Shown: piece after piece, positions 42,443 through 43,291 of the stretch
Layout: the number at the start of each line of letters is the position of its first letter
How positions within the stretch are numbered: the first letter of the stretch is position 1
Origin: Bigelowiella natans CCMP2755
Taxonomy: Eukaryota; Protista; Cercozoa
Direction of reading: 5' to 3'
NCBI GenBank assembly: GCA_000320545.1
Contig: ADNK01003018.1
Coordinates: 1-64,000 of the forward strand
DNA length: 64,000 nucleotides
The notes under the pieces: generated by a model
Databases searched by the model: none
What the model was told of the DNA's origin: nothing
What the model saw: only the letters and a program-made list of their open reading frames with translations
Translations under genes and position numbers: made by a program

Positions 42443-43291
42443 ATTCATTTATCCCTCCCTCTTCTCGGTGCTGGTTTATGTCTCCTTCCCCCCGCCCCCC
42501 GTAGATACCCAGAGAGGCAAGGCAAACCGTGGGTGCCTGGGTGGGAGATTGAAGGATCTCACACACCAATAGTTCTCCAAATTGGTAAGTACAGGATGAT
42601 GATGATGACAACGATTATGATACACTATTAACAATAATAATAGTAAAAAGCAACGACCACGATGACGAATACGAGCACCTCAGCCTCCACCACCACCACC
42701 ACGAAGAAGAAGAAGAAGAAGTTGTTGTTATCAACAACGACGATCATCCTCCTCCTGCTGCTGCTGCTACTACTACTACTACTACTTCTCAGATGATAGA
42801 ATATTTCGTCATGAACCAGATGTCACTTGGGATGAGCGGTACTATATAATATACTATAAGTTGTAGTAGTAGTAGTAGTAGCAGCAGCAGCAGTAGGAAG
42901 ATAATCGTTATCGTTTATTAGAACAACAAATTCTTCTTCTTCTTCCAAGTGACGATTGAGTGCATGTGTAATATGGTTTATTTGATCAGTCAAAATAACT
43001 TACTGTACTTCCAAAATTTGTTTAGGATGAAAACATGCATGCATACACACACACACATACATACATACATACATACATACAAGTAGCCGCACAATGAATC
43101 AAACACAATGCTCCTTCTTCTCTACGTATTATCATCCTAAAGTGCTCTCTCCTCCTTATAATATAGATACGGCAAATGCTGCCTTATGATGGTTGATCTC
43201 GATGATTCTGAGGGGTAGGTTAGACAACAATGTATACCCATCATACGTCATTAATTGGGGACGATTTATTAACAATAACGTGGTAGTTGGG

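Follow-up and report, generated by a model that had tools for sequence, protein, structure and literature searches.

Why should a coding exon of 46 nucleotides lie in the loop of a long hairpin to which each of its two flanking introns contributes one arm? The question arises in the chlorarachniophyte Bigelowiella natans CCMP2755, in the first 64,000 nucleotides of contig ADNK01003018.1 (assembly GCA_000320545.1), a stretch referred to here as the window. The possible answers range from a selected RNA structure that governs the splicing of the exon to an accident of DNA copying, and our analysis favours the latter: the feature most probably represents the remains of a mutation of a known type, around a real exon.

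The inverted repeat and the exon in its loop

A first-pass annotation had described an 85-bp hairpin of compound microsatellites, with the same block order in both arms and an upstream arm ending 5 nt before the exon, and all of this is borne out (Table 1). In ungapped register, 42703-42787 and 42861-42945 are reverse complements at 71 of 85 positions, the longest perfect run of 31 nt adjoining the exon, and a gapped local alignment of the arms reaches a score of 111 over 83 columns, with 8 mismatches and one 3-nt gap. The repeat ranks first in the repeat finder's list for 41500-44500 and is the best-scoring inverted match of the whole window. With the AAG at 42858 as inner boundary, the hairpin loop measures 70 nt, consisting of 5 nt on the acceptor side, the exon, and 19 nt on the donor side. 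Besides the 31 bp nearest the exon, the outer 15 bp pair perfectly, and 12 of the 14 differing sites fall within the spacer between the blocks or on its margin. Similarity stops at the arm ends and does not extend further out. The upstream arm overlaps the pyrimidine-rich stretch preceding the acceptor, and for the RNA of 42690-42960 a fold of -121.5 kcal/mol is predicted. One part of the earlier description fails, as the supposedly non-repetitive spacer is a degenerate triplet run which, taken alone, matches at 20 of 27 positions and is tied in this with one unrelated site (of 127,893).

Table 1. Features of the bracketed locus and further predicted bracketed exons in the window.
Feature	Position	Strand	Remarks
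Upstream arm	42703..42787	+	(GAA)6-(GTT)3-degenerate triplet spacer-(CCT)3-(GCT)4-(ACT)6; 3' end of upstream intron
Downstream arm	42858..42945	+	AAG-(TAG)n-(CAG)4-degenerate spacer-(TTC)5; begins 19 nt past donor; ungapped partner 42861-42945
Coding exon in hairpin loop, 46 nt	42793..42838	+	AG..GT; RNA contigs; open frame
Upstream intron, 208 nt	42585..42792	+	GT..AG
Downstream intron, 328 nt	42839..43166	+	GT..AG
Upstream neighbour exon, 80 nt	42505..42584	+	RNA contig pieces/joints and loose end
Downstream neighbour exon, 48 nt	43167..43214	+	RNA contigs, loose end
Host gene, protein of no known family	40675..46400	+	Exons from about 40719 to 43713 on one RNA contig; link to exons 45739-46400 inferred
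Predicted bracketed exon	12605-12785	+	Scores of the five predicted bracketed exons, 46-57
Predicted bracketed exon	22556-22754	+	
Predicted bracketed exon	57450-57587	+	
Predicted bracketed exon	61149-61343	-	
Predicted bracketed exon	60552-60845	-	

The exon itself is real, as RNA contigs link it to both of its neighbours. Contigs of three RNA runs (X15, X16, and X19) join 42584 to 43166 via 45 letters which, together with a shared G, make up the 46-nt exon, and in two of the three runs (X16 and X19, one contig each) the exon's identity is confirmed by loose ends that are the neighbouring exons. Together with these neighbours it encodes D-D-R-I-F-R-H-E-P-D-V-T-W-D-E-R, seven exons from 40922 to 43214 form a continuous open frame without a stop, and loss of the 46-nt exon causes a frameshift. 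Zero RNA depth at 42778-42898 in a wide-region mapping is read as repeat masking and not as a sign of a different exon, since narrow mapping placed the exon in both RNA sets tried.

A 42-residue upstream exon of the host gene matches a single protein, a JGI Bigna1 model, at 100%. Protein searches matched only the partial B. natans models P0001 and P0002, with nothing for residues 89-128 of P0001, two TPR proteins being taken as chance matches, and Pfam holds no family for P0001 or P0002. P0001, a JGI model (40204-41013, + strand), reads past the donor at 41004 to a stop, whereas in RNA contigs splicing continues as far as 43713; the public annotation of the host gene appears truncated or split. 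In another gene, an exon at 59542-59624 (- strand) contains the same nine residues, DDRIFRHEP, as the 46-nt exon (tblastn E 0.056 within the window). Its intron positions differ and it carries no bracket (score 20); judging from the shared residues, it is possibly a distant paralogue.

The arms match beyond what their microsatellites explain

All nulls were drawn from the 64-kb window only, and a dinucleotide shuffle (z -13.4) was dropped as a null, inflated as it is by the destruction of the microsatellites. Complementarity of the arms exceeds the nulls that preserve microsatellite content; the feature is real and non-random, and the earlier claim that shared microsatellites alone do not explain it is supported. 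When each arm is compared with the 150-nt tiles of both strands, 1696 comparisons in all, the next best score is 55-59. Among 6340 near inverted tile pairs the arm pair tops the list, the next locus scoring 78, and for far pairs the best of 30000 inverted ones reaches 87 and the best of 30000 direct ones 75. None of 20000 draws from an order-8 Markov null scored 80 or more, the maximum being 74. The outer 54 nt agree at 42 of 54 positions with their partner and at no more than 34 of 54 elsewhere (127,785 positions). The window has four (GCT)n(ACT)n junctions, and extension past the seed is seen at the arm pair alone (53 versus at most 10).

When the repeats are collapsed to one copy, the arm match loses significance: its score falls to 20, a level that 3145 of 40000 far pairs attain. 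If two copies are retained, it scores 43, a value reached by none of 40000 far pairs and by one unrelated near pair. As the signal is lost with one copy and survives with two, and as the spacer is itself a triplet run, the signal comes jointly from block order, register, and spacer. Arms that are colinear and ungapped, far above the microsatellite-preserving nulls, point to a common origin.

Polarised triplet runs and other bracketed exons

Exons of the window were compiled in two ways. For the hand-curated set 74 exons were listed and one, with stops in all frames, was dropped, leaving 73 exons of six genes; this set keeps one other exon with stops, whose acceptor is uncertain, and one donor altered by hand, and its RNA support concerns host-gene exons up to 44025 only. 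Small exons are over-predicted in the automatic set, to which filters of 40 and 55 nt were applied.

Triplet runs of the ATC, CTA, CTT, and CCT classes are polarised around the 73 curated exons. Before acceptors, 19 runs are pyrimidine-rich versus 5 purine-rich, and after donors the numbers are 12 versus 27 (Fisher p 2.5e-4, with the counts partly dependent on one another). Donors are followed by (TAG)n and (GAT)n, often beginning with the GT of the donor, and acceptors are preceded by (CTA)n, (CAT)n, and (CTT)n. Such polarised runs at intron ends provide pairing seeds across short exons.

Elsewhere in the window an about threefold excess of bracketed exons is no more than suggestive. With the 46-nt exon left out of the curated set, 5 of 72 exons have a cross-exon inverted score of at least 40, compared with 1.5 expected when all exons are permuted and 2.0 within genes (p 0.012 and 0.031); in the automatic set, 5 of 115 exons reach 40 compared with 1.7-1.8 expected (p 0.02-0.03), and the direct-repeat control on that set gives no such excess. 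The threshold of 40 was set after looking, with the bracket loci already known before the exons were curated, and at thresholds of 30 and 50 most tests on the automatic set give p > 0.05. A comparison of adjacent with random intron pairs, proposed together with the hairpin, divides: without the 46-nt exon, mean complementarity of adjacent pairs is no higher than that of permuted ones (p 0.07 and 0.15; duplex energy p 0.22 and 0.29), but the tail is enriched. At a score of at least 40, cross-exon pairs (6/73) do not differ significantly from within-intron pairs (2/61; p 0.29). None of the six bracketed exons has a length that is a multiple of 3. The excess could stem from a local mutational process, but also from selection.

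In the five further bracketed exons (Table 1) the brackets consist of complementary triplet runs. Those of the exons at 12677 and 60748 run on into degenerate or compound sequence, and the exon at 60748 folds much better in antisense (-85.7) than in sense (-55.9). At 23080-23275 (+ strand), a compound inverted repeat with a score of 65, (TC)n...(TA)n followed by (TA)n(GA)n, lies inside one intron and spans no predicted exon. Recent direct duplications of 50-90 bp occur in introns at about 11550-11760, 16280-16440, 22435-22560, and 47880-48010 (scores 99-171), indicating that short local copying events are common in the window.

Splicing and tests for a selected helix

The exon-included form is the only one among the RNA contigs of the three runs. 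No skipped, back-spliced, or retained form was encountered at the exon in the contigs of any of them, contigs being prone to lose rare forms, and a sample of about 6/100 of the raw RNA run X21 placed 11 reads on the 3.6-kb region, too few to be informative. The search for skipping and back-splice junctions that had been suggested for this locus therefore comes out empty at the level of contigs. Regulation or definition of the exon by RNA structure, as the first-pass annotation had offered, receives no positive support, considering that only inclusion is seen in RNA contigs, that mismatches do not favour the pre-mRNA strand, and that skipping would shift the frame. The analogies drawn with exon skipping, back-splicing, and A-to-I editing in animals transfer poorly to a chlorarachniophyte; PMC9989829 regards A-to-I editing of mRNA as an innovation of metazoans, and editing of the arms, over which the RNA contigs give no cover, is unlikely on present knowledge.

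Folding of the growing transcript predicts for positions -20 to -4 before the acceptor an unpaired share of 0.62 in a transcript ending at 42860 and of 0.15 in one ending at 42880. According to this model the stem would cover the 20 nt before the acceptor once transcription has reached 42880. What assembles is nevertheless the form with the exon.

A sense helix under selection should lean towards G-U pairs. On the pre-mRNA strand, the mismatches of the gapped alignment consist of 1 G-U, 4 A-C, and 3 others, so that the observed lean is the opposite one, although the counts are too few: neither the 1 of 5 at this locus (p 0.375) nor the 4 of 15 for the six bracketed exons together (p 0.12) is significant. 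The antisense fold (-125.9 kcal/mol) is better than the sense fold (-116.9 kcal/mol), and among the six bracketed exons the sense strand gives the better fold in 3. Aligned without gaps, the arms differ in 7 places by G/C upstream and A/T downstream and in 1 place the other way round, a skew in line with the 2.65-fold AT bias given for mutation in B. natans (10.64898/2026.01.13.699255). The perfect pure blocks speak against neutrality, though pure repeats are pure by ascertainment.

Origin of the inverted repeat

We interpret the 85-bp inverted repeat as the relic of one local inverted copy, made by template switching or fold-back repair and devoid of a selected splicing role, and assign this reading a probability of about 0.55. 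Template switching is known to create or to perfect inverted repeats (PMC5453318; PMC8794818), and two of its hallmarks are encountered here, namely a nearby reverse-complement copy beyond chance and a short complementarity that could serve as primer, (CTA)n/(TAG)n, which presumably pre-dates the copy. The starting point is seen throughout the window, where purine-rich runs past donors and pyrimidine-rich complements before acceptors place pairable runs on both sides of short exons. (CTA)n and (TAG)n might then have paired across the exon, allowing the nascent strand to switch template and to copy about 55 further bases, in reverse, into the other intron. The 14 differences in 85 positions, which show no bias to pairs tolerated in a helix, would represent neutral decay, and the pure repeat blocks may have been kept clean by slippage or repeated correction. 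In the pre-mRNA, the hairpin is predicted to fold and to cover the pre-acceptor stretch as soon as the downstream intron has grown to about 40 nt; presumably the stem closes too late to affect an acceptor already committed, or else it is unwound, and any skipped product would be a frameshifted by-product. The same kind of switching would be expected to leave slightly more brackets than chance at other loci, none of which need have a function.

Template-switch inverted duplication, already named in the first-pass annotation, fits the colinear arms, the ready pairing seed, and the uncompensated decay; the copying event itself is deduced from its end state. Metagenome scans for a related allele gave 0 matches to the exon pattern and one 22-residue match (L001), which was rejected as a related allele, having 59% GC, no repeats, and no match at the DNA level. 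Neither these scans nor the protein searches found an ancestral or outgroup allele, which counts against the copying reading, as does the perfect pairing of the inner 31 bp and the outer 15 bp, which would also result from selection on a stem. Events in the sections of PMC5453318 considered here are described as short-range, with no case of about 85 bp among them.

Selection for an RNA structure is rather unlikely in our judgement. According to this proposal the stem presents the exon in its loop, or covers the acceptor so that some transcripts skip the exon, shift frame, and are degraded, and the locus would be the strongest of a genome-wide class of bracketed exons. The predicted stem, at about -117 to -121 kcal/mol and with 31 perfectly paired bp beside the exon, would suit such a role, and so would the bracket excess at 40 or more in both exon sets (with none for direct repeats in the automatic set), the lengths of the six bracketed exons, and the precedents of (AC)m-(GT)n introns in fish and of Alu duplexes. 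However, the three contig sets contain no skip joint, G-U pairs are not preferred, and the antisense strand folds better; moreover, the excess is mostly not significant in the automatic set at thresholds of 30 and 50, is not significant in mean score or duplex energy once the target is removed, does not significantly separate cross-exon from within-intron pairs, and concerns brackets that were known before curation. Still less probable is convergence, in which the arms grew separately as compound microsatellites and were brought to match by the polarity of intron ends together with one-base triplet drift (CCT to GCT to ACT). Polarity is real, the spacer is matched equally well by one unrelated site, the match vanishes on one-copy collapse, and permuted flank pairs reach 79; but the exact register kept past the seed, the failure of the other (GCT)n(ACT)n junctions to extend, and the ceiling of the Markov null speak against independent growth.

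Two further explanations were considered. Foldback and MITE-like elements typically possess terminal inverted repeats, and the arms could be a remnant of such an element or two oppositely inserted copies of one dispersed repeat; introner-type introns, too, often carry terminal inverted repeats (PMC12730881). We consider a mobile element very unlikely, since there is no third copy of an arm within 64 kb, the arms are distributed over two introns with an in-frame exon between them, and similarity ends where the arms end. An assembly artefact, i.e., a fold-back chimera, seems hardly credible. The DNA contigs of runs X1 and X14 over the exon are just 126 nt long, and the read check covers 42786-42861 only. 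Nevertheless, arms that differ at 14 of 85 sites are unlike a chimera, the loop and inner edges (42786-42861) are identical in two DNA runs (possibly from the same strain as the window), and of the words sampled from the 3.6-kb region, 0.71-0.82 are present in fourteen DNA runs, which are perhaps not independent of the window's source.

Comparison with known systems

Like the inverted repeats attributed to template switching under the four-point model (PMC5453318) and in studies of hairpin creation (PMC8794818), the B. natans repeat comprises a local reverse-complement copy and a spacer, is capable of forming a hairpin, and may have started from an imperfect repeat. It differs in having arms of about 85 bp that consist of compound microsatellites and a coding exon as spacer, and in being an event reconstructed from its end state. 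With primate exons looped out by duplexes of inverted Alu copies (PMC13019944), it shares complementary sequence in both flanking introns near the splice sites of one exon. In contrast to these, its arms are simple repeats and not transposon copies, the loop is 70 nt and the introns are short, only inclusion is seen in contigs, and the duplex is a predicted one.

The fish (AC)m-(GT)n introns (PMC4691745) offer another parallel, as they also contain complementary simple repeats that are polar around splice sites. There, however, the pair bridges the ends of one intron and helps its splicing, whereas the B. natans pair uses triplets and spans an exon, and within-intron pairs at a score of at least 40, numbering just 2 of 61, are not enriched; the locus does not belong to a class of bridged introns of the fish type. 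In BRD2 and BRD3, complementary regions control unproductive splicing (PMC10789245), and a frame-disrupting choice beside an intronic duplex, the geometry that a regulatory role would need, is common to both systems. Those regions are conserved across species; for the B. natans hairpin, the metagenome scans gave no homologous locus.

Whatever its origin, the locus offers a case from nature in which an exon remains included despite the very stable hairpin predicted around it, and illustrates how much structure the spliceosome tolerates. It is also conceivable, though we think it improbable, that complementary microsatellites act as modular brackets that define or tune short B. natans exons by RNA structure, affecting several percent of the exons in repeat-rich genes and being lengthened by template switching. 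If so, the brackets would constitute a mirror image of the intron-bridging repeats of fish, with the 46-nt-exon locus as the most elaborated case, and might be relevant to the exon skipping, so far unexplained, that has been reported from B. natans. This skipping is described as unusual and as departing from the usual exon-definition pattern, and later data disagreed with it for reasons that are unknown (PMC6142364). As a candidate variable for skipping, the polarised and mutually complementary triplet repeats of intron ends can be scored with public data on about 190,000 exons, the genome being credited with 21,708 genes of 8.8 exons each (PMC12730881). A literature search retrieved no report of microsatellite hairpins in B. 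natans; the 2012 genome paper, which lay outside its scope, may bear on the question.

Other features of the window

Two kinds of genes are found in the window. Genes of one kind (1100-5500 and 35300-37420) are nearly free of repeats (repeat fraction 0-0.002) and have few introns, and those of the other (7256-30550, 40675-46400, and 54900-63400) are intron-dense and repeat-rich (repeat fraction 0.07-0.13). Judging by their motifs, the predicted exons at 26854-30541 (- strand) putatively encode a Ser/Thr protein kinase, those at 54900-57550 (+ strand) a RING-finger protein with a membrane part, and those at 19750-23800 (+ strand) an NHL-repeat-like protein. Simple repeats are said to be largely absent from B. 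natans (PMC12730881), a statement which, as worded in that source, does not describe this 64-kb window. Rfam, at gathering score, recognises no family at the arms and only a U6 snRNA gene at 53406-53517 (+ strand) in the whole window. The window starts at a telomere, positions 1-96 consisting of (TAACCC)n, the same telomere repeat as reported for another chlorarachniophyte (PMC12730881).
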